Assembly (NCBI GenBank): GCA_037139835.1
Contig: JBAXFQ010000001.1
Coordinates: 12,780 to 76,779, forward strand
Length of the DNA: 64,000 nt
Origin: Candidatus Nomurabacteria bacterium
GTDB taxonomy: Bacteria; Patescibacteriota; Minisyncoccia; Phycocordibacterales; UBA9973
Reading direction: 5' to 3'
Positions within the stretch are counted from its first letter, which is position 1. Each line of letters begins with the position of its first letter. Of the stretch, positions 3,219 to 47,014 are shown in pieces. The translations under genes and the position numbers were made by a program. A model generated the notes under the pieces. It made no database searches and was not told where the DNA came from. It saw only the letters and a program-made list of their open reading frames with translations.

Positions 3219-3587
3219 TTATTTGAGTAGTATTTTATTTATGTATTCTACGAGTTCTTCAAGAGAGAAGTTTGACTTAATCATGAATCTGGTAGCTCCT
3301 AATCCGTTGGCTTTATCTATATCACTTTTTTCTGATAGGTTAGAAAATACAATTACAGGTATATTTTTGTTTAATTCTCCTTCCCTTATCTTTTTAAGAA
3401 TTTGAAATCCATCATAGTTAGGTAATAGCAAGTCCAATAGAACTAAATCAACTTTAGAGTCTGATATTCTTCTCATACCATCTTCTCCATTGATAGCAGT
3501 TATAACTTCATAGCCACTATTCTTTATTTTAGTAGCTTCAAGTCCTTGTAAGAATTCATCGTCTTCGATTATCAGTATTTTTTTCAT
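3219..3587 (-). CDS. Stand-alone response-regulator receiver domain protein (CheY-like)
   Basis: 122 aa with conserved receiver motifs (acidic pocket DD, LLDLLLP, a phospho-acceptor Asp context and K near the C-terminus). It lies directly downstream of a histidine kinase. Confidence 0.8.
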   Translation of the reverse strand: MKKILIIEDDEFLQGLEATKIKNSGYEVITAINGEDGMRRISDSKVDLVLLDLLLPNYDGFQILKKIREGELNKNIPVIVFSNLSEKSDIDKANGLGATRFMIKSNFSLEELVEYINKILLK

Positions 3588-5262: not shown

Positions 5263-5263
5263 G

Positions 5264-5350
5264 CGGAGCTGGCTGGATTCGAACCAGCGGGGGAAATTAC
5301 TCCCCGCCTCTTTAGCAAAGAGGTAGATTAAACCACTCTCCCACAGCTCC
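5264..5350 (-). tRNA. tRNA-Ser (anticodon GCU), type II with a long variable arm
   Basis: Hand-folded cloverleaf: acceptor GGAGCTG/CAGCTCC, anticodon stem CCTCT/AGAGG, loop TTGCTAA, long variable arm, T-loop TTCGAAT and discriminator G. Confidence 0.8.
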
Positions 5351-5570
5351 TTATAATATAAAGTATCATAATTATTCTTATTTCTCAATAATATTTTATT
5401 ATTAAAATAAATGTGCTAAGATAATCAAAGTAAATCACAAGGAGGCGTGGATATGAAATGTAAACTGCTTTACATTTCATCCGTTCAGATATTTTATCTG
5501 AAAAGCTATATGCTTTAAGCATAGCTTTAGGGAAGGGCCCGGGAGGGCACGAAGACACAACGACGAGTGA

Positions 5571-6977
<1,407 letters not shown>

Positions 6978-32552: not shown

Positions 32553-32570
32553 ATTTGCGCGGTCGACCGG
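32553..32570 (-). pseudogene. Fragment identical to the 3' acceptor end of tRNA-Asp (TCCGGTCGACCGCGCA in the tRNA sense)
   Basis: An 18-nt direct repeat of the tRNA-Asp 3' end, located 150 nt downstream of the intact gene. Confidence 0.5.
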
Positions 32571-32648
32571 AATCTTTCGCCCTACGGTCTTACCAATAAG
32601 TGATTCTGCTGAATCAGGTACTTTTCCATCTTCAATAAGGAAAAGTTT

Positions 32649-32716
32649 TTCAAGTCCGGTCGTTAGCAAAGCAGTTTGCTAACTCGACCTCATAAAAAGC
32701 CTCTTTCGAGGCTTTT
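32649..32716. repeat. Inverted tRNA-Asp T-arm fragment (TTCAAGTCCGGTCG) plus two perfect hairpins (gttagcaaa..tttgctaac and aaaaagcctc..gaggcttttt)
   Basis: Direct reading of the sequence. Confidence 0.5.
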
Positions 32717-32723
32717 TCTTTTG

Positions 32724-32797: not shown

Positions 32798-32848
32798 AAA
32801 TTTTTCTAAACTATAACTTTTATAAACCAAACAATATAACTTTGCCAA

Positions 32849-32892
32849 GGCGAGTGCTCACTATATTCTAATTGAAGTTGAGCTACGACCGC
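32849..32892 (-). pseudogene. Degenerate copy of the 5' half of tRNA-Asp (acceptor + D-arm)
   Basis: GCGGTCGTAGCTCAACTTCAATTAGAATATAGTGAGCACTCGCC, compared with the tRNA-Asp 5' half GCGGTCGTAGCTCAACTGGTTAGAGCACTCGCC. Confidence 0.5.
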
Positions 32893-33340: not shown

Positions 33341-33384
33341 GTGTATTGCTCCTGTAAAGAGAGATTCTCACTGACGGCTCAAAA
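33341..33384 (+). pseudogene. Truncated pseudo-tRNA: a second copy of the last 23 nt of tRNA-Thr(GGU) (GATTCTCACTGACGGCTCAAAAG) preceded by a decayed anticodon-arm-like stretch
   Basis: An exact 23-nt repeat of positions 33298-33320, abutting the next tRNA. Confidence 0.55.
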
Positions 33385-39855: not shown

Positions 39856-40557
39856 ATGCCAAGTAATTGGAATAGGGGATTAACTAAAGAAAATAATAAT
39901 TCTGTTAAGAAAATATCTGAAACAATGAAAAATAAACACATTGATAATTTTTACCATTGGAGAGAAAAAATGAAAAAAGAAGGTAAAATTAAATCAATTT
40001 ATCTACCTTTTAAAAAGAATGGAGATTTAGCAGAATTAATTGGTGTGACGCTAGGAGATGGTCATCTTTGTGTATATCCAAGAACAGAAGAATTAAGAAT
40101 AATATCAAATTCAAAAAATACTGGTTTTATTGAAAGATACTCAATTATTTTAGAGAAAGTTTTTAAGAAAAAACCTTATATTATAAATTCAAAAATTAGT
40201 AATTCAACAAGAATTGGTCTTTACGAAAAGAACATTAGTGAAAGAATACAAATTCCTACAGGAGCACGTAAAAATATAGTTATTATTGTTCCTGACTGGA
40301 TTTTAAGAGATAAAAAGTATATAGTAAGGTATCTGCGAGGTTTATACGAAGCAGAGGGAAGTTTTAATGTTCATAGCTCTACTTATACTTATAAATTTTC
40401 ATTTTCTAACAGTAATGAATCAATGCTCAATAATGTATTTGATTTAATGAAAGTTATTGGTTTTAACCCGCATAAAAGTAAAAACCAGATTCAAATTTCA
40501 AGGAAAGAAGAAGTGTATAAGGCAATGAAAATATTAAAATTCAGAGACTATAAATAA
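39856..40557 (+). CDS. Free-standing LAGLIDADG-family homing endonuclease-like protein
   Basis: Two LAGLIDADG-type motifs, LIGVTLGDGHL and LRGLYEAEGSF, about 100 aa apart. A TATAAT lies 6 nt before the ATG. Confidence 0.6.
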   Translation: MPSNWNRGLTKENNNSVKKISETMKNKHIDNFYHWREKMKKEGKIKSIYLPFKKNGDLAELIGVTLGDGHLCVYPRTEELRIISNSKNTGFIERYSIILEKVFKKKPYIINSKISNSTRIGLYEKNISERIQIPTGARKNIVIIVPDWILRDKKYIVRYLRGLYEAEGSFNVHSSTYTYKFSFSNSNESMLNNVFDLMKVIGFNPHKSKNQIQISRKEEVYKAMKILKFRDYK

Positions 40558-40563
40558 ATATTT

Positions 40564-40634
40564 TGCTGGTTGGTGTAATGGTAGCACGTCTCCCTCTGGA
40601 GGAGAAAATTGGGGTTCGAGTCCCTGACCGGCAG
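40564..40634 (+). tRNA. tRNA-Gln (CUG)
   Basis: Hand fold: U1-A72 acceptor TGCTGGT/ACCGGCA, G73, and anticodon stem TCTCC/GGAGA with loop CTCTGGA. The listed ORF 40563..40802 is spurious. Confidence 0.75.
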
Positions 40635-40643
40635 CAAAATGAA

Positions 40644-40677
40644 AATCCGCTTGTTAAAGCGGTATTTTCTTTTTTTG
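40644..40677 (+). terminator. Rho-independent terminator after tRNA-Gln
   Basis: ccgctt gtta aagcgg followed by TATTTTCTTTTTTTG. Confidence 0.6.
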
Positions 40678-40794
40678 TTACCGGTAACGAGCAAACTTCT
40701 TTGCTCGTGTCAGGGACGAGAAAGACTTTTCTGTGGTTTGTTTACAAACCTAGAAAAGTACCAGCGACCGTAGGGCGAGAGAAGTGTATTCACA

Positions 40795-40839
40795 GTCCCT
40801 GACCGGCAGCAAGGGTTTTAAATATTAATTTGGTATAAT
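40795..40839 (+). promoter_or_regulatory. Box P0: an exact 17-nt copy of the tRNA-Gln 3' end (GTCCCTGACCGGCAGCA), then 22 nt, an extended -10 TGGTATAAT, 6 nt and the ATG of the downstream gene
   Basis: Direct comparison with tRNA positions 40618-40634. Confidence 0.6.
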
Positions 40840-40845
40840 ACAATA

Positions 40846-41325
40846 ATGATAATTTTTATTAATGGTTCAATAAATTCTGGCAAAACTACAGTCTCTAAAA
40901 TATTAGCTTATAAACTTTCTAATGTAGCTTTAATAGAAATTGATTCACTTAGAGAAATGATTGATTGGATGCCACTCAATGAAGCAATTCCTATTAATTT
41001 AGAAAATACAATTTCATTAATCAAAAATTTTTCTAATAAAAATTTAAATACAATTATTCCATATCCTTTATCTAAGAAAAACTACGATTTCATTTTAAAT
41101 GAACTTAAAGATATAAATACGAAAATCTATACCTTCACATTAGCTCCAAAACTTGAGACGGTTCTCATTAATAGGGGAACCAGAGAATTAGATGACAGTG
41201 AACGTGAAAGAATTAAGTATCATTATAATATAGGAATACATAAGCCTATTTTTGGAGAAATTATAGATAACAGTAATCAAACACCTGAAGAAACCGCTAA
41301 TTTTATCTTATCTAAAATATCTTAA
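40846..41325 (+). CDS. P-loop NTPase / small-molecule kinase-like protein
   Basis: Walker A GSINSGKTT within 10 aa of the N-terminus. At 159 aa it resembles shikimate/chloramphenicol-phosphotransferase-type kinases. Confidence 0.55.
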   Translation: MIIFINGSINSGKTTVSKILAYKLSNVALIEIDSLREMIDWMPLNEAIPINLENTISLIKNFSNKNLNTIIPYPLSKKNYDFILNELKDINTKIYTFTLAPKLETVLINRGTRELDDSERERIKYHYNIGIHKPIFGEIIDNSNQTPEETANFILSKIS

Positions 41326-41351
41326 TTTTATCCTCATTTTCTATCAAAATA

Positions 41352-41409
41352 GGTTCCAACTTCGTCCCAGACGGTCAGCAACGACTTTTTGAACTAGGTT
41401 TGATATAAT
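41352..41409 (+). promoter_or_regulatory. Box P1: a tRNA-Gln-3'-end-like element (GGTTCcaacttcGTCCCAGACGGTCAGCA), then 23 nt, TGATATAAT, 6 nt and ATG
   Basis: It matches the tRNA 3' end at 14 of 17 positions and shares a GGTTC T-loop start. Confidence 0.55.
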
Positions 41410-41415
41410 AATTGT

Positions 41416-42066
41416 ATGGAAAATAATAAAAATTTTAATAAACTTTCAGTTGTCTCATTAATTTTAATACTAGTAGGTCCATTATTTATAATCCTAGATA
41501 AATTACATATTTATTTACCCAAAGGAGATTTTTGGGAAATATATTTGGTAATAATATCATTTATTCTTGGATTTATTTTTGCAATTATTTCATTATATAA
41601 AATTAAACAATCTGCTGAAAAAGGAAGAATTTTATCTATCGCAACAATAACAATATTTATTATATTATCATTATTAATTTCTTATGCTTTACTTTTTAGC
41701 CAGTCAGATCCCATAAAACCAAATTCAAGAATGAAATCACAATTAGCAAGTGTAAGAGCACAAGCAGAATCATATTATCAATCATCAAATTATTCTTATG
41801 ATGGTTTGTGTGAAGCCACACAAGATAAAAATGGTTTAGGTGGTAATTCTAACTCTGGACTTTTAATGGCAATCTCTGCAGCTTCAGCTAAAAATACAAC
41901 TAAATGTTTTAGTGGTAGCAGTAGTTGGGTTGTAACATCTGGATTGGTTGATATTACAAAGCCATATACACATTATTGTACAGACATGACAGGAGTTTTT
42001 GAACCAATAACAAAAGCTCAAAATGATTCAATTACAAACGCCGATACTCTTTGCCCTCAGCAGTAA
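41416..42066 (+). CDS. Pilin-headgroup homolog on a polytopic anchor (3 TM helices; no prepilin cleavage motif)
   Basis: The C-terminal 120 aa (KSQLASVRAQAE ... NGLGG ... GLLMA ... HYCTDMTG, 4 Cys) are homologous to the globular domains of the two major pilins at 19558 and 20106. Confidence 0.6.
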   Translation: MENNKNFNKLSVVSLILILVGPLFIILDKLHIYLPKGDFWEIYLVIISFILGFIFAIISLYKIKQSAEKGRILSIATITIFIILSLLISYALLFSQSDPIKPNSRMKSQLASVRAQAESYYQSSNYSYDGLCEATQDKNGLGGNSNSGLLMAISAASAKNTTKCFSGSSSWVVTSGLVDITKPYTHYCTDMTGVFEPITKAQNDSITNADTLCPQQ

Positions 42067-42067
42067 A

Positions 42068-42109
42068 GGTTCCAACATTGTCCCAACAGTAATCAAATTA
42101 TGGTACAAT
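42068..42109 (+). promoter_or_regulatory. Box P2 (GGTTCcaacattGTCCCaacagtaatca) fused to TGGTACAAT, then 6 nt and ATG
   Basis: Same family as P1 and P3, with an internal deletion. Confidence 0.5.
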
Positions 42110-42115
42110 TAAATT

Positions 42116-42385
42116 ATGAATCTACTAGCCGGTATAATTGTTGGTTTCTTATTTTTTAAATTATTCGCGGGAAAATACGAAGGAGATAAAATTGAAAGAT
42201 CTTTGCGCTTTTCTATCAAAAATAATTATCTACATATCCATCATTGGATTTTTTGTTTAACATTACTAATAATTATTTTAATTCTAGGTTTTAAGAATGA
42301 ATTAATTATTGGATTACTTATAGGTTCTATAGTGCAAGGTTTAACTTATAAAGATAGATTTTTAATTATCTACTCTAAAAGTTAA
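42116..42385 (+). CDS. Small membrane protein (89 aa, 2-3 TM helices)
   Basis: Hydrophobic profile, and it has its own P-box promoter. Confidence 0.4.
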   Translation: MNLLAGIIVGFLFFKLFAGKYEGDKIERSLRFSIKNNYLHIHHWIFCLTLLIIILILGFKNELIIGLLIGSIVQGLTYKDRFLIIYSKS

Positions 42386-42408
42386 TCTAAATATTTCCAA
42401 TAAAAAAT

Positions 42409-42465
42409 GTTCCAACATCGCCCCAGACAGTCAGATAGTTCATTCAAGGTTTTACGTGATATAAT
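42409..42465 (+). promoter_or_regulatory. Box P3 (GTTCcaacatcGCCCCAGACAGTCAGA), then 23 nt, TGATATAAT, 6 nt and ATG
   Basis: 27 of 31 positions identical to P1. Confidence 0.55.
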
Positions 42466-42471
42466 CATTCC

Positions 42472-43458
42472 ATGGAATCAAACCTTGAAAAAATAAATTC
42501 AACAGTACATTTTAAAAACCAGCCAAAACTCTCTGGCGCAGAGGTTGATAAGAATCGAGATGAAAGACGATTGTCGTTATTTTCTTCTATTGAGAATTTT
42601 TTGTTGAATGATGATTTATTTAAGGGAAAAGAAATTGAAGTTGAATTTTCCCATGAAGGTATTTCTTCATTAGTTTGTTTTATTGAAGGAGGAGAGAAAA
42701 AAATGGTTCTTAAAATTGCTGTAGATAATACCGTAACCGAAGGTAGTGAAGCATTGTTTCTAAGAACGTGGAAATCTATCGGCATCTCAACACCACATAT
42801 TTACAAAGAGGGTAAACTTGCAGGTAGGCCATTTGTTTTGATGGAATATATCGATGCACCTACTGCAGGAGAGAAGTATAATGAGGATAAAGAAGGCAGG
42901 GAGAGTATGCATCTTGAAGTAGGGAGAATTTTACGCAAAATGCACAAACCAGAATCTATTGGATTTGGTAAGGTTATAGACGGCAAAGGAGAGTATACTT
43001 CTTTTAGAGAATGGATTGATACTCCAGATATGAGCAACAGAGTAAAGTATATAGAAGAAAATAATTTATTAACTTTAGAGCATGGAACATTTTCTCAAGC
43101 TAGAAATATTCTGGTTGATTATGTAGGTGATAGTAATAAAAGCAGTTATTGCCATTTTGATTATAGTGCTGGGCATCTTTTTGCCACAGAACCTCTAACC
43201 GTCTTTGATCCGAATCCTCTTTTTAATAATGGATATATAGATTTGGGGCGTACTTTAGTAAATTATATCGCTGCTAGTGGAACATATCCTAAAAAGATTG
43301 TGGAGGGTTATTTTGAAGAAGGTGGATTAGATGAAAAAGTTTTGCATGCCTCAATATTTATCAATATAATCTACAAGTTACCATACCAGTATCAGAAAGG
43401 AAAATCACAAACTATACAAAACTTCCAAAATTATCTTTCTCAGAATAAATTTCTCTAG
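42472..43458 (+). CDS. Phosphotransferase-family protein (APH/choline-kinase-like fold)
   Basis: Brenner-like catalytic region CHFDYSAGHL and an IDLGRT motif resembling the APH IDxGR(x)G box. Confidence 0.5.
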   Translation: MESNLEKINSTVHFKNQPKLSGAEVDKNRDERRLSLFSSIENFLLNDDLFKGKEIEVEFSHEGISSLVCFIEGGEKKMVLKIAVDNTVTEGSEALFLRTWKSIGISTPHIYKEGKLAGRPFVLMEYIDAPTAGEKYNEDKEGRESMHLEVGRILRKMHKPESIGFGKVIDGKGEYTSFREWIDTPDMSNRVKYIEENNLLTLEHGTFSQARNILVDYVGDSNKSSYCHFDYSAGHLFATEPLTVFDPNPLFNNGYIDLGRTLVNYIAASGTYPKKIVEGYFEEGGLDEKVLHASIFINIIYKLPYQYQKGKSQTIQNFQNYLSQNKFL

Positions 43459-43478
43459 ATATAGTATGTTTTCTATAT

Positions 43479-43508
43479 CTGTCTATCACTTTGGAACTTT
43501 GTTATAAT
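43479..43508 (+). promoter_or_regulatory. Box P4 (TGTCTATCACTTTGGAACTTTGTTATAAT) for the HIT gene; a second promoter-box family
   Basis: Nearly identical to P5 (45513..45541), and preceded by the terminator hairpin agatatag..ctatatct. Confidence 0.5.
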
Positions 43509-45445: not shown

Positions 45446-45512
45446 ACGTTTAATTGTTTAAAATGTTCATTATTTAAGAACATATTACTTAAAAATGAAT
45501 ATTAAGCAAGCC

Positions 45513-45541
45513 TGTCTATCACTTTAGAACTTTGGTATAAT
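45513..45541 (+). promoter_or_regulatory. Box P5 (TGTCTATCACTTTAGAACTTTGGTATAAT), then 6 nt and ATG
   Basis: 28 of 30 positions identical to P4. Confidence 0.5.
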
Positions 45542-46559: not shown

Positions 46560-46609
46560 AGTATTTAATTAAAACCCTGAAATAGTTTCTAATATTGCTT
46601 AAAATCACT

Positions 46610-46642
46610 ACCAACGACTTTTTGAGATTGTTCTGGTATAAT
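46610..46642 (+). promoter_or_regulatory. Box P6 (ACCAACGACTTTTTGAgaTtGTTcTGGTATAAT), then 6 nt and ATG
   Basis: It shares the promoter-proximal half (CAACGACTTTTTGA...TATAAT) with P1. Confidence 0.5.
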
Positions 46643-46648
46643 TTAATT

Positions 46649-47014
46649 ATGGATGAATTGAAGAAGATTATATATAAATTAGAAACAGACTTGCTTAAAC
46701 CAGAAGTTAGAAGTTCATTTAAAACGCTTGATGAAATTATAGCAAATGATTTTATTGAATATGGGAGTTCTGGTCTTATTTATAATAAAGATATGATTTT
46801 AGAAAGATTACCAAAAGCAATTTCTCCTTCTTATTCTTTGTATGATTTTGAGGTTATTTTTTTAGCAGAAAATATAATTCAGACAAGATTCAAAACAGAT
46901 AGGATAAATCTAAATAATACCAAAACAACTTCTTTTAGAAGTTCTATTTGGAAAAATACTGGAAAAAAGTGGCAAATAATATTTCACCAAGGAACACCAA
47001 TTAATTATTTATAA
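46649..47014 (+). CDS. NTF2-like / DUF4440-like small protein
   Basis: C-terminus ...KKWQIIFHQGTPI, typical of SnoaL/DUF4440 folds. Start is set at the ATG 6 nt after TATAAT; the listed ORF begins at 46595. Confidence 0.45.
   Translation: MDELKKIIYKLETDLLKPEVRSSFKTLDEIIANDFIEYGSSGLIYNKDMILERLPKAISPSYSLYDFEVIFLAENIIQTRFKTDRINLNNTKTTSFRSSIWKNTGKKWQIIFHQGTPINYL

Follow-up and report, generated by a model that had tools for sequence, protein, structure and literature searches.

The window analysed here is a 64-kb stretch (64,000 nt) of the genome of a Candidatus Nomurabacteria bacterium, in which a tRNA-Gln gene is followed on the same strand by four small genes, interspersed with short repeats that recall the 3' end of that tRNA. 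The features of the locus are as follows:

39856-40557, plus strand: LAGLIDADG-type homing-endonuclease-like ORF directly 5' of tRNA-Gln (Pfam LAGLIDADG_3, E = 4e-7)
40564-40635, plus strand: tRNA-Gln(CTG) (ARAGORN and Rfam)
40647-40662, plus strand: intrinsic terminator hairpin of the tRNA gene (terminator scan)
40664-40793, plus strand: structured spacer, 'TFE' (repeat search, I10; RNA fold z = -5.1)
40794-40812, plus strand: P0, 19-nt direct repeat identical to the tRNA-Gln 3' end, AGTCCCTGACCGGCAGCAA (repeat family D3)
40834-41325, plus strand: cassette 1, with the -10 box TATAAT at 40834-40839, 6 nt, and the ATG of the ORF 40846-41325
41347-41384, plus strand: P1, near-canonical P-type box AAATAGGTTCCAACTTCGTCCCAGACGGTCAGC, core CAGC at 41376-41379 (nhmmer E = 2e-10)
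41404-42066, plus strand: cassette 2, with a -10 box at 41404-41409 and the ORF of a 216-aa membrane/secreted protein at 41416-42066
42064-42085, plus strand: P2, truncated P-type box AAAGGTTCCAACATTGTCCCA that has lost its core-proximal half (nhmmer E = 3e-4; repeat family D1)
42104-42385, plus strand: cassette 3, with the -10 box TACAAT at 42104-42109 and an 89-aa transmembrane ORF at 42116-42385
42403-42439, plus strand: P3, P-type box AAAAATGTTCCAACATCGCCCCAGACAGTCAGA with the degenerate core CAGA (nhmmer E = 8e-8; repeat family D2)
42460-43458, plus strand: cassette 4, with a -10 box at 42460-42465 and the ORF of a 328-aa APH-family phosphotransferase at 42472-43458 (Pfam APH)
43478-43508, plus strand: 'Promoter X' CTGTCTATCACTTTGGAACTTTGTTATAAT, the downstream border of the array, repeated at about 45511-45541

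The 3' end of the tRNA-Gln gene (...GGTTCGAGTCCCTGACCGGCAGC) is an attB-type (B) arm, and P0, with its core CAGC at 40807-40810, is a B-type site as well; the array begins there. A P0-like arrangement is also found at two further loci (L091 and L092), where it co-varies with the local tRNA. The TFE spacer duplicates the 5' acceptor strand of the tRNA and also contains a hairpin and the complement of a tRNA 3' segment (GTCCCTGAC, present within TFE as GTCAGGGAC at 40711-40719), and it is homologous to the spacer behind tRNA-Asp. Searches of the boxes and the spacer with Rfam 15 covariance models returned tRNA matches only, plus one unrelated LOOT RNA. The LAGLIDADG-like ORF is a recurring neighbour, with homologues at the same position in L210 and L160, and a GIY-YIG ORF takes its place in L090.

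Cassette 1 encodes a 159-aa P-loop (AAA_18/zeta-like) kinase whose Pfam matches lie under the curated cut-offs, while the cassette 2 protein has no significant Pfam family. Homologues of the cassette 4 APH protein (73-90% identity) occur in four other genomic contexts; no recognisable box is present downstream of this cassette, and in L002 Promoter X is found on either side of the APH gene. In a close relative, several contigs begin near one of the repeats, no more than about 1 kb before the APH gene, which points to an assembly hazard at this place.

P1, P2 and P3 are copies of a conserved box of about 35 nt, A.AAARGTTCCAACATCGTCCCAGACNSCCAGC, rather than decayed forms of the local tRNA. All three are recovered by a profile made from foreign copies of the box, and a 26-nt pattern has P1 and P3 as its sole matches in the 64 kb (shuffles expect 0.00), in good agreement with the earlier proposal that the boxes form a real family. 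When compared with the tRNAs of the window, P1 matches tRNA-Gln best, at 15 of 18 positions without gaps and with a local alignment score of 21 that was reached by 6 of 5000 shuffles. The tRNA likeness of P3 alone is not significant and the best tRNA match of P2 is to the reverse strand of another tRNA, so that, as far as likeness to a tRNA is concerned, these two belong to the family only through P1. Identity of about 15 nt or more to the 3' part of the tRNA, as expected of tyrosine-integrase islands, is found at P0 (19 nt) and not at P1-P3 or the canonical boxes, in which 3-5 of 17 positions differ from the local tRNA. The variable positions of the box are third positions of an antisense reading frame (profile column counts) and behave as codon third positions of a recombinase tail would. 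The box is an attP arm that merely resembles tRNA-Gln: the original prediction, which took all four repeats for degenerate copies of the tRNA-Gln 3' end, is correct for P0, exact over 19 nt, and incorrect for the conserved attP arm that constitutes P1-P3.

The family extends far beyond the window. A scan with a 20-base exact pattern detected 162 boxes in at least 120 metagenome contigs with GC contents of 28-64%, to which a profile search adds degenerate copies; the two box contigs checked for lineage are both Patescibacteria. The orientation of the boxes is constant, all of them lying on one strand in 117 of 117 loci, with a median spacing of 550 nt and up to 8 boxes per locus at E<1e-3. Linkage to tRNA-Gln is strict: this tRNA is present in 25 of the at least 120 loci and any other tRNA in only 3, and in every locus for which coordinates were compared tRNA-Gln lies upstream of the boxes on the same strand. 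Hundreds of times over, a unit begins a few bases past the previous core and stops at the next box. As cargo, these cassettes carry genes for small accessory enzymes of the NUDIX, HAD, GNAT, kinase and glyoxalase families, and in 39 of 111 cassettes the longest ORF is on the strand opposite to the box.

Comparison of synteny among relatives, suggested earlier as a check, shows that pyrG-LOG-tRNA-Gln is conserved and that, downstream of the tRNA, each genome has different genes. In four locus comparisons the junction falls precisely behind the CAGC with which the tRNA gene ends, and the box is located at the far end of the insert. In L141 the tRNA ends in GGCAGC and is followed directly by AACGAGTTTTAG, while in L127 a 771-nt insert, ending in ...GTTCCAACATCGTCCCAGACAGCCAGC, separates the same tRNA from AACGAGTTTTAG. 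L099 and L162 diverge exactly after CCCAGC, past which L162 carries a 6.9-kb element with genes for a large serine recombinase (LSR) and a Rep protein and a canonical box at its end. An identical cassette is present behind a B-type site in L191 and behind a P-type box in L155, where it sits at the end of a 7-box array, and an SRPBCC gene together with its promoter lies behind P0 in L092 and behind a third box in L090. At the junctions of the L141/L127, L099/L162 and L191/L155 pairs, box and tRNA share at most 4 nt (CAGC), and from these pairs we infer that insertion in the window would have taken place directly past CAGC at 40632-40635. Each box was originally thought to head the cassette downstream of it; instead, it ends the upstream cassette, and the promoter belongs to the next unit. 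P1 is the attP-arm scar that closes cassette 1.

The recombinase of the relatives is assigned to the LSRs on the basis of its Pfam domains (Resolvase, Recombinase and Zn_ribbon_recom). In L162 and L210 its gene abuts or converges on tRNA-Gln, and in L088, from a close relative of the window organism, the gene is situated near this tRNA; overall, it was found within only about five box-bearing loci, many of the stretches examined being short. An LSR gene is also present on free circular elements. LSR P0298 is encoded in 13 contigs, and the five examined are 5726-5751 nt long and circularly permuted, with 30- or 55-nt terminal overlaps; a second free element, of 4.6 kb, is likewise circularly permuted. 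Besides the LSR gene, the free circles contain cargo genes and a gene for a rolling-circle Rep. By tblastn there is no recombinase gene in the 64-kb window, tyrosine recombinases included, just as noted earlier, and this absence is explained by the recombinase being an LSR that resides in relatives and on free circles.

On the free circles (L337-L341 and L343/L344) attP is located inside the LSR gene. The box of the 5.7-kb element is near-canonical, with 3 extra bases beside the core; it overlaps the 3' end of the LSR gene on the opposite strand and codes for ...LVAVWDDVGTGLTISL followed by a stop. In the 4.6-kb element the corresponding position is taken by a degenerate box that codes for ...LLAVWYDVGT.... 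The tail that the box encodes in the free form of the LSR reads ...L-(G/A)-V-W-D-D-V-G-T..., and the opposite strands of P1 and P3 translate to LTVWDEVGT and LTVWGDVGT, respectively. Integrated LSR copies instead read into antisense tRNA-Gln. Among the database members of the LSR family, about 26 of the 36 C-termini, read by eye, are antisense-tRNA peptides (such as ...L(R/G/P)D or ...LRDLDSNQD...SYH, each followed by a stop). Since attP overlaps the recombinase coding sequence, integration alters the C-terminus of the protein.

The two types of site differ in the spacing of their motifs. The tRNA has the arrangement GGTTC-N3-TCCC...CAGC and the box GGTTC-N8-TCCC...CAGC, i.e. the box has its outer motif shifted outward by 5 bp, which fits the half-site rule that the outer motif, that of the zinc-ribbon domain, lies 5 bp further from the centre in attP than in attB (PMC3783163). 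GGTTC and TCCC.G.C are candidate LSR-binding motifs, and their assignment to the individual domains is likewise a prediction from sequence. A canonical LSR site consists of two related inverted half-sites flanking the core; no inverted copy of the box motifs is recognisable to the right of the core, be it in P' of L162, L210 and L337 or in B' of L141. The box has no internal dyad or hairpin, and an upstream inverted motif precedes only 15 of 149 boxes (about 10%). The crossover of serine recombinases is 2 bp and the overlap of tyrosine recombinases 6-8 bp, and the shared junction sequence of at most 4 nt therefore suits the former and not the latter. Taken together, we consider it highly probable that the boxes are the P arm and crossover core of the attachment site of small integrative elements that are moved by an LSR and form a Patescibacteria-wide family, with the predicted LSR likely catalysing the integration reaction. 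The variable genes downstream of the tRNA, the junction at the tRNA end and the LSR render the original notion of tandem islets, inserted one after another and site-specifically at the 3' end of tRNA-Gln, essentially right, save for the details of box origin and box placement.

A tRNA-derived operator/promoter module had been put forward as the other possible reading, i.e. the box would be a regulatory element (e.g. the binding site of a regulator) that spread with a leaderless promoter in front of accessory genes. Within the window this has some appeal: all four genes have TA(T/C)AAT, 6 nt and ATG, every box precedes a same-strand gene, and the distance to the -10 box, described as fixed, is indeed 25 nt for P1 and P3 and 24 nt for P0. 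However, this regularity does not hold family-wide, where the core lies 4-55 nt from the -10 box. About one third of all boxes (75 of 222) precede a -10 box and the ATG of a same-strand gene, but many are followed by a hairpin or a convergent gene, and the invariant orientation of the boxes is independent of the direction of the cargo genes. Furthermore, the promoter arrangement is common throughout the window without a box, and the box forms the distal boundary of the insert in the comparisons of related loci and, on the free elements, falls within the recombinase gene. The promoter does not include the box, and the module reading is unsupported and scarcely credible. We similarly regard as very improbable that a tyrosine recombinase captured the cassettes at the tRNA, with the box serving as an att or attC-like site. 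While tyrosine integrases usually target tRNA 3' ends, the 19-nt identity block of P0 starts in the T-loop as it does at such sites, and the arrays have an integron-like appearance, the junction falls short of a 6-8-bp overlap, the box has no inverted-repeat or hairpin architecture, the cassettes have promoters of their own and, in free elements, the box is physically within an LSR gene. Xer-like tyrosine recombinases do occur in 3 of the at least 120 loci, once directly behind a box (L205), but they are of the ordinary Xer type, and no IntI-like gene is linked to the arrays.

Alternatively, the units could be passive scars: each would once have been a full 5-7-kb LSR element, deleted down to useful cargo and an att remnant, and nothing would move now. 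The truncation of P2, the degenerate core of P3, the many degenerate boxes among the loci and the fact that full LSR elements end in the same box all agree with this view, as does the finding of no free circle for any unit without a recombinase. We nevertheless think it unlikely, given that random deletion would not repeat the core-to-box layout hundreds of times, and that conservation of 162 boxes exact to the 20-base pattern, in arrays of up to 8, is hard to account for in unselected DNA. The presence of the identical cassette both behind the B-type site of L191 and at the end of the L155 array also argues against it.

For elements moved by an LSR we propose the following course of events. 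The free element is a 4.6-5.7-kb circle with attP within the LSR 3' end on the opposite strand. Its attB target would be the tRNA-Gln 3' end itself or, as with P0, a copy of it further downstream. With strands exchanged in CAGC or immediately past it, the tRNA would remain intact; upon integration the LSR gene would point into the tRNA and gain a different C-terminal tail, and the box would come to lie at the distal end of the insert, with the former flank behind it. The next element would enter at the tRNA-side site and push older inserts outward, resulting in a co-oriented row of promoter-gene-box units. Most units, the four of the window included, are without a recombinase; they would be remnants of stripped-down elements or else non-autonomous cassettes reliant on a recombinase in trans, and the latter may still be mobile. 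The window would then comprise a B-type landing site (P0), two full scars (P1 and P3) and a truncated one (P2). To our knowledge, canonical LSRs do not recombine attP with attL-like sites, and re-entry on the tRNA side would therefore need relaxed right-arm requirements. P0 stands directly before a promoter (CAGC followed by AAGGGTTTT...), and the same promoter drives a different gene in L092 and L090, an arrangement not predicted by the simple push-outward model.

Tentatively, and with somewhat less than even confidence, we suggest that Patescibacteria have an integron-like platform for gene capture, with a tRNA gene and a serine recombinase as its basis. Cassettes of one gene, each with its own leaderless promoter and 35-nt attP arm, would be excised and re-inserted as units at tRNA-Gln, with the LSR supplied in trans by co-resident 5-kb circles. 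The swap of the LSR tail, from the free ...VWDDVGT... to an antisense-tRNA peptide, could provide the enzyme with an intrinsic switch of direction or stability.

Several known systems share parts of this organisation. In staphylococcal cassette chromosome (SCC) and the ccr-less pseudo-SCC elements, large serine recombinases insert at the 3' end of one conserved gene (rlmH), where insertions accumulate in tandem, and the recombinase-less units, bounded by integration-site repeats, can use a recombinase in trans. The arrays resemble them in the tandem LSR insertion at the 3' end of one gene and in their recombinase-less, repeat-bounded units, but the target here is a tRNA gene rather than rlmH, the units are mostly single-gene and 0.3-1 kb rather than tens of kilobases long, attP is inside the recombinase gene and the hosts are Patescibacteria. 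In the integration-dependent immunity of cluster G mycobacteriophages attP lies inside the repressor gene and the integrase is a tyrosine recombinase; there, too, integration changes the C-terminal end of the product of the attP-bearing gene, whereas here the altered gene is that of the serine recombinase itself. With integrons the arrays have in common co-oriented, mostly single-gene cassettes that each end in a recombination site, a fixed platform and accessory enzymes; they differ in having no IntI and no attC hairpin, in their own leaderless promoters, in the tRNA platform and in the serine recombinase implicated. The short core, the motifs shared by attB and attP and the recombinase beside attP are reminiscent of phage serine integrase sites (A118/LI, Bxb1 and phiC31; PMC3783163), although in our case only the left arms are recognisable, attP overlaps the recombinase CDS and repeated same-side integration is implied. 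Finally, the tycheposons and tRNA-linked genomic islands of Prochlorococcus integrate at tRNA genes, tycheposons mostly by means of tyrosine integrases and a minority of the elements by large serine recombinases; new arrivals push older ones inward, and the islands contain scattered partial tRNA repeats and degraded remnants (bioRxiv 10.1101/2020.12.28.424599). Integration at a tRNA gene, displacement of older inserts and the repeats and remnants are common to both. However, the tycheposon repeats are true partial copies of the local tRNA, while here a conserved non-tRNA attP arm recurs across lineages of 28-64% GC, and each of the tightly packed units holds a single gene.

The genomes of Patescibacteria are tiny, and the ways in which genes enter and leave them are little understood. 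The locus type described here represents a sequence-defined exchange point, present across lineages of very different base composition. The genes stacked at it are small and accessory, coding for NUDIX and HAD hydrolases, acetyltransferases, kinases and membrane proteins. The conserved box provides a search handle for such arrays and their cargo in metagenomes. Finally, the free circles point to a compact candidate serine recombinase whose natural target is the tRNA-Gln 3' end and which may be of interest for the development of Patescibacteria genetics.

The array begins behind a tRNA-Gln gene. Past that gene come a terminator hairpin, a spacer and P0, which repeats the tRNA 3' end exactly, and then three copies of a conserved box (P1-P3) that lie between genes.

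Features of the tRNA-Gln locus in the window
40564-40635, + strand: tRNA-Gln(CTG), called by ARAGORN and Rfam
40647-40662, + strand: terminator hairpin downstream of tRNA-Gln
Between the terminator hairpin and P0: spacer of 130 nt
40794-40812, + strand: P0, exact repeat (19 nt) of the 3' end of tRNA-Gln
41347-41384, + strand: P1, box of the repeat family, between genes
42064-42085, + strand: P2, box of the repeat family, truncated, between genes
42403-42439, + strand: P3, box of the repeat family, between genes

Each of the four genes of the array begins with TA(T/C)AAT, 6 nt and ATG. Across the 64 kb, whose GC content is 32%, a 26-nt box pattern matches P1 and P3 only, with 0 matches expected by chance. 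The original prediction described an array of boxes linked to tRNA-Gln, each fused to a leaderless promoter, without an integrase in the window; since boxes, promoters, the tRNA likeness of P1 and the absence of a recombinase gene from the window were all checked, we can confirm this observation. The proposed resemblance of the boxes to tRNA-Gln held in part: P0 is exact, and P1 is closer to tRNA-Gln than to any other tRNA of the window (15 of 18 positions without gaps; an alignment score reached by 6 of 5000 shuffles), whereas P2 and P3, taken by themselves, show no significant likeness to a tRNA. In Pfam searches the product of the first gene has weak P-loop kinase matches and that of the fourth belongs to the APH family, while the second and third products have no significant family. 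Ahead of the gene that starts at 46649, the promoter region (46603-46648) has CAACGACTTTTTGA in common with the sequence after the P1 core; it may be another junction of this array in a more degenerate state. More generally, many genes of the window start 6-8 nt past a TATAAT-like hexamer, with no space for a ribosome-binding site (for example at 3587, 16643, 31909, 34605, 36196, 39856, 45832, 53504 and 60584), so that leaderless expression seems common in this organism.

Comparison with relatives, which the original prediction had proposed, showed a fixed anchor with changing contents. Homologues of the flanking LOG-family gene (85-87% identity) led to loci that retain the order pyrG-LOG-tRNA-Gln(CTG), and the genes 3' of tRNA-Gln differ in every relative compared: contig L088 has a large serine recombinase (LSR) and a type I restriction-modification island, and L090, L091 and L092 each have their own distinct set of small genes. 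Box-like sequences, all on the tRNA strand, precede genes past the tRNA in L090 (three), L091 and L092; the latter two also retain the spacer and the copied tRNA 3' end, each of which has co-varied with the local tRNA sequence. Homologues of the APH gene (73-90% identity) were found in four other contexts. The APH-family protein of the window is identical to one from a MAG that NCBI names Candidatus Nomurabacteria, and contig L001 (assembly GCA_005795825.1) has the same gene order, tRNAs and boxes as the window. Among the matches listed, a scan of a genome collection with the LOG protein gave relatives at no more than 48% identity and no synteny information.

An exact-pattern scan of metagenome contigs recovered at least 162 boxes on at least 120 contigs with a GC content of 28-64%, and a profile search raised the number of copies to 303 in all. 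Their consensus reads A.AAARGT TCCAAC A TCG T CCCAGAC N S C CAG C AA. Every one of the 117 loci with strong matches has all its boxes on a single strand. The median spacing is 550 nt (interquartile range 424-685), and a locus has up to eight boxes at E<1e-3, or nine in L097 counting one weak match. The stretch between two boxes usually holds one small ORF whose stop adjoins the next box, with 72 such ORFs running along the box and 39 against it. tRNA-Gln (UUG or CUG) is present in 25 of 120 loci, and in every locus for which coordinates were compared it precedes the boxes and shares their strand; any other tRNA is found in only three of the 120. NCBI places proteins of two loci of ~52% GC in clusters named Patescibacteria.

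Among 40 cassette ORFs scanned against Pfam, six are NUDIX proteins, HAD, GNAT, DUF218 and AAA_18 account for two each, and the singles include peptide deformylase, isochorismatase, TauE, glycosyltransferase 2, diacylglycerol kinase and glyoxalase. No Rfam family matched box or spacer in the window region and nine array loci; a LOOT RNA (RF03000, 68 bits) lies at 952-1065 of L193, a few kilobases upstream of a five-box array. An 18-mer box pattern gave isolated single matches in viral contigs, which are probably due to chance. In the literature consulted we found no account of the box or of tRNA-Gln arrays in Patescibacteria.

The insertion junction was fixed by four pairs of loci (in the sequences below, a slash marks the junction). 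The tRNA end of L141 reads ...TCCCTGTCCGGCAGC/AACGAGTTTTAG; in L127 an identical tRNA is followed by 771 additional nucleotides ending in ...AAAAAGTTCCAACATCGTCCCAGACAGCCAGC/AACGAGTTTTAG, and then by the flank of L141. L099 equals L162 through ...TCTCCCAGC/ and diverges beyond, where L162 continues into a 6.9-kb element that terminates with the first of the six boxes of an array. L191 and L155 have a cassette in common (100% identity over 107 nt), which stands behind a tRNA-type site (GGTTCGATCCCTACTCTGCCAGC/) in L191 and behind a box (...CCCAGACAGCCAGC/) in L155. Similarly, an SRPBCC gene with its promoter follows a P0-type copy in L092 and the third box in L090, the homology beginning directly past CAGC. 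From these four pairs we conclude that exchange takes place within or just past CAGC, at the end of the tRNA gene, that the box forms the distal end of the inserted DNA, and that the promoter behind a box is part of the next unit. At the junction, box and tRNA have at most four bases in common (CAGC).

A candidate enzyme is encoded at several tRNA-Gln loci. In L162 and L210 a protein of 486-488 aa with Resolvase, Recombinase and Zn_ribbon_recom domains (Pfam) is encoded convergently, directly against the tRNA-Gln 3' end, and its gene adjoins one for a rolling-circle Rep (PF23343); L088 and L166 carry related recombinases at the equivalent position. At E<=1e-40 the family numbers 2558 proteins in the database, and those few that carry a name are from Parcubacteria, Campbellbacteria and Patescibacteria. 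One LSR, P0298, is found on 13 contigs from different samples. The five of these that we examined are 5726-5751 nt long, start at differing points in one sequence and have terminal overlaps of 30 or 55 nt; they represent a free circle of ~5.7 kb. A second LSR, P0290, belongs to a 4.6-kb circle represented by two contigs that are circular permutations of each other. In IMG/VR there were no free forms of LSR elements, and the LSR protein had no match in one scan of viral contigs and at most 28% identity in another. Defence genes are among the cargo that the recombinase elements carry: a Shedu-type (SduA_C) nuclease is encoded on the 5.7-kb circle (L337, 2325-5189), and the island beside tRNA-Gln in L088 (1-6966) encodes type I restriction-modification together with an AAA_15 ATPase.

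The 5.7-kb circle contains a near-canonical box, GGTTCCAACATCGTCCCAGACTGCCACCAGC/TCGACAAG..., on the strand opposite the recombinase gene and overlapping its 3' end, so that on the gene strand it encodes the recombinase tail ...VE-L-VAVWDDVGTGLTISL*; the corresponding position of the 4.6-kb circle is occupied by a degenerate box that encodes ...LLAVWYDVGT.... When integrated, the LSR ORF runs across the core into antisense tRNA and ends in ...MLGD* (L162) or ...MLRD* (L210). Reading the C-termini of 36 family members, we found that about 26 match antisense-tRNA peptides, e.g. ...L(R/G/P)D* or ...LRDLDSNQD...SYH*, and that two have the box-encoded tail. The positions at which the box varies (6, 18 and -3 in a column table) fall on the third bases of codons in the antisense frame L-(G/A)-V-W-D-D-V-G-T, and the antisense readings in the window are LTVWDEVGT for P1 and LTVWGDVGT for P3. 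The box is unusually conserved because it serves as a recombination arm and, in the free element, codes for protein as well.

Box and tRNA also share motifs at different distances. tRNA-Gln genes read GGTTC, 3 nt, TCCC.G.C....CAGC and boxes GGTTC, 8 nt, TCCCAGAC..CCAGC, which places the outer motif 5 bp further from the crossover in the box. In phage serine integrases, the motif for the zinc-ribbon domain is shifted 5 bp towards the centre in attB relative to attP (Rutherford et al., PMC3783163). By this analogy, and given the shared motifs, we infer that the box would act as the P arm (element side) and the tRNA end as the B arm (tRNA side) of one enzyme. To the right of the core, no inverted copy of the box motifs, a defining feature, was seen in elements or chromosomal flanks.

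Several other explanations were weighed. The array layout recalls integrons, and the first 8 bases of the box, GTTCCAAC, are loosely like the inverse core site of attC, but the box has no partner site and no hairpin, IntI is missing and the cassettes have their own promoters, so that an integron was rejected. A hairpin site could be formed by TCTRGACAGAAC...TTGCA, which lies 34 nt upstream of some boxes and can pair with them, but it accompanies only ~10% of boxes and was rejected as a general feature. The fuller form of this motif, TCTRGACAGAAC.TA.CAT..TTGCA, with GG-N10-GC spacing, is found in L116, L117/L168, L173, L190, L193, L204 and others. A classical tyrosine-integrase island was rejected because the common core is too short. 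A homing endonuclease as the inserting enzyme was considered since LAGLIDADG or GIY-YIG genes lie just 5' of tRNA-Gln in four loci; nothing ties them to the junctions. The LAGLIDADG-type ORFs are in three unrelated loci (window 39856-40557, L210 1457-2164 and L160 3834-4574) and the GIY-YIG ORF is in L090 (9603-9860); they look like free-standing homing-endonuclease genes linked to tRNA-Gln.

Homologous recombination between similar promoters may have added to the shuffling of genes. What follows the promoter sequence CAGC/AAGGGTTTT... is one gene in the window and another in L092/L090, and promoter X, a 30-nt repeat (CTGTCTATCAYTTTRGAACTTTGNTATAAT) at the downstream border of the array, stands ahead of different genes in different genomes and on both sides of the APH gene in L002, which suggests gene exchange via recombination between promoter repeats. 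As the sole cause, such exchange was rejected, since it cannot account for the precise CAGC junctions; on the strength of these promoters, it may work alongside site-specific insertion.

Copies of promoter X
Window, 43478-43508
Window, about 45511-45541
L002, 957-998
L002, 2005-2044
L090, 8352-8421
L091, 8107-8162

L002, L003 and L004, contigs of a close relative from different samples, begin at most ~1 kb upstream of the APH gene, near promoter X, which suggests either an assembly break at the repeat or a strain-variable junction.

Structured spacers and partial tRNA copies are also found elsewhere. The spacer between tRNA-Gln and P0 (40636-40812 region) has a stable RNA fold (z = -5.1). Within 32553-32722 on the minus strand, tRNA-Asp is likewise followed by a terminator, by a spacer and by a sequence that repeats the tRNA-Asp 3' end exactly (32557-32575); an inverted copy lies at 32648-32663, and the spacer is homologous to that of tRNA-Gln (AGCAAACTnCTTTGCT, GAAAAGTACC and GACCGTAGGGCGA in common). 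Similar structures lie behind tRNA-Gln in L091, L092 and L127 and behind tRNA-Trp in L006. A copy of the tRNA-Asp 5' half (32847-32892) lies upstream of tRNA-Asp, and a 23-nt copy of the tRNA-Thr(GGT) 3' end (33362-33384) just before tRNA-Thr(CGT). ARAGORN also predicts, facing tRNA-Ser(GCT), another tRNA-Ser whose anticodon, ACT, is unusual (5263-5350, 5441-5452, 5576-5663); its first 12 bases recur 135 nt upstream, and a long ORF call overlaps it.

SCC and pseudo-SCC elements use serine recombinases, accrete in tandem at the 3' end of one gene and include recombinase-less units, features that make them one of the closest parallels to the arrays described here. Another is provided by the tycheposon islands of Prochlorococcus (bioRxiv 10.1101/2020.12.28.424599), and a third, as regards array layout, by integrons. 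In the model that we propose, elements would enter on the tRNA side, at the tRNA or at a repeat of its end further downstream (P0, for example), and older inserts would shift outward, each leaving its P arm behind as a box. The enzyme would then have to accept an attL-like site as its target. Under such outward growth, P1-P3 would be the distal scars of three successive inserts in the window and P0 its present landing site. The truncated P2 and degenerate P3 core show decay at this locus. The recombinase-less units of 0.3-1 kb may themselves move as units: the arrays are regularly packed, many boxes are intact, and an identical cassette stands in two contexts, all of which speaks for mobility.
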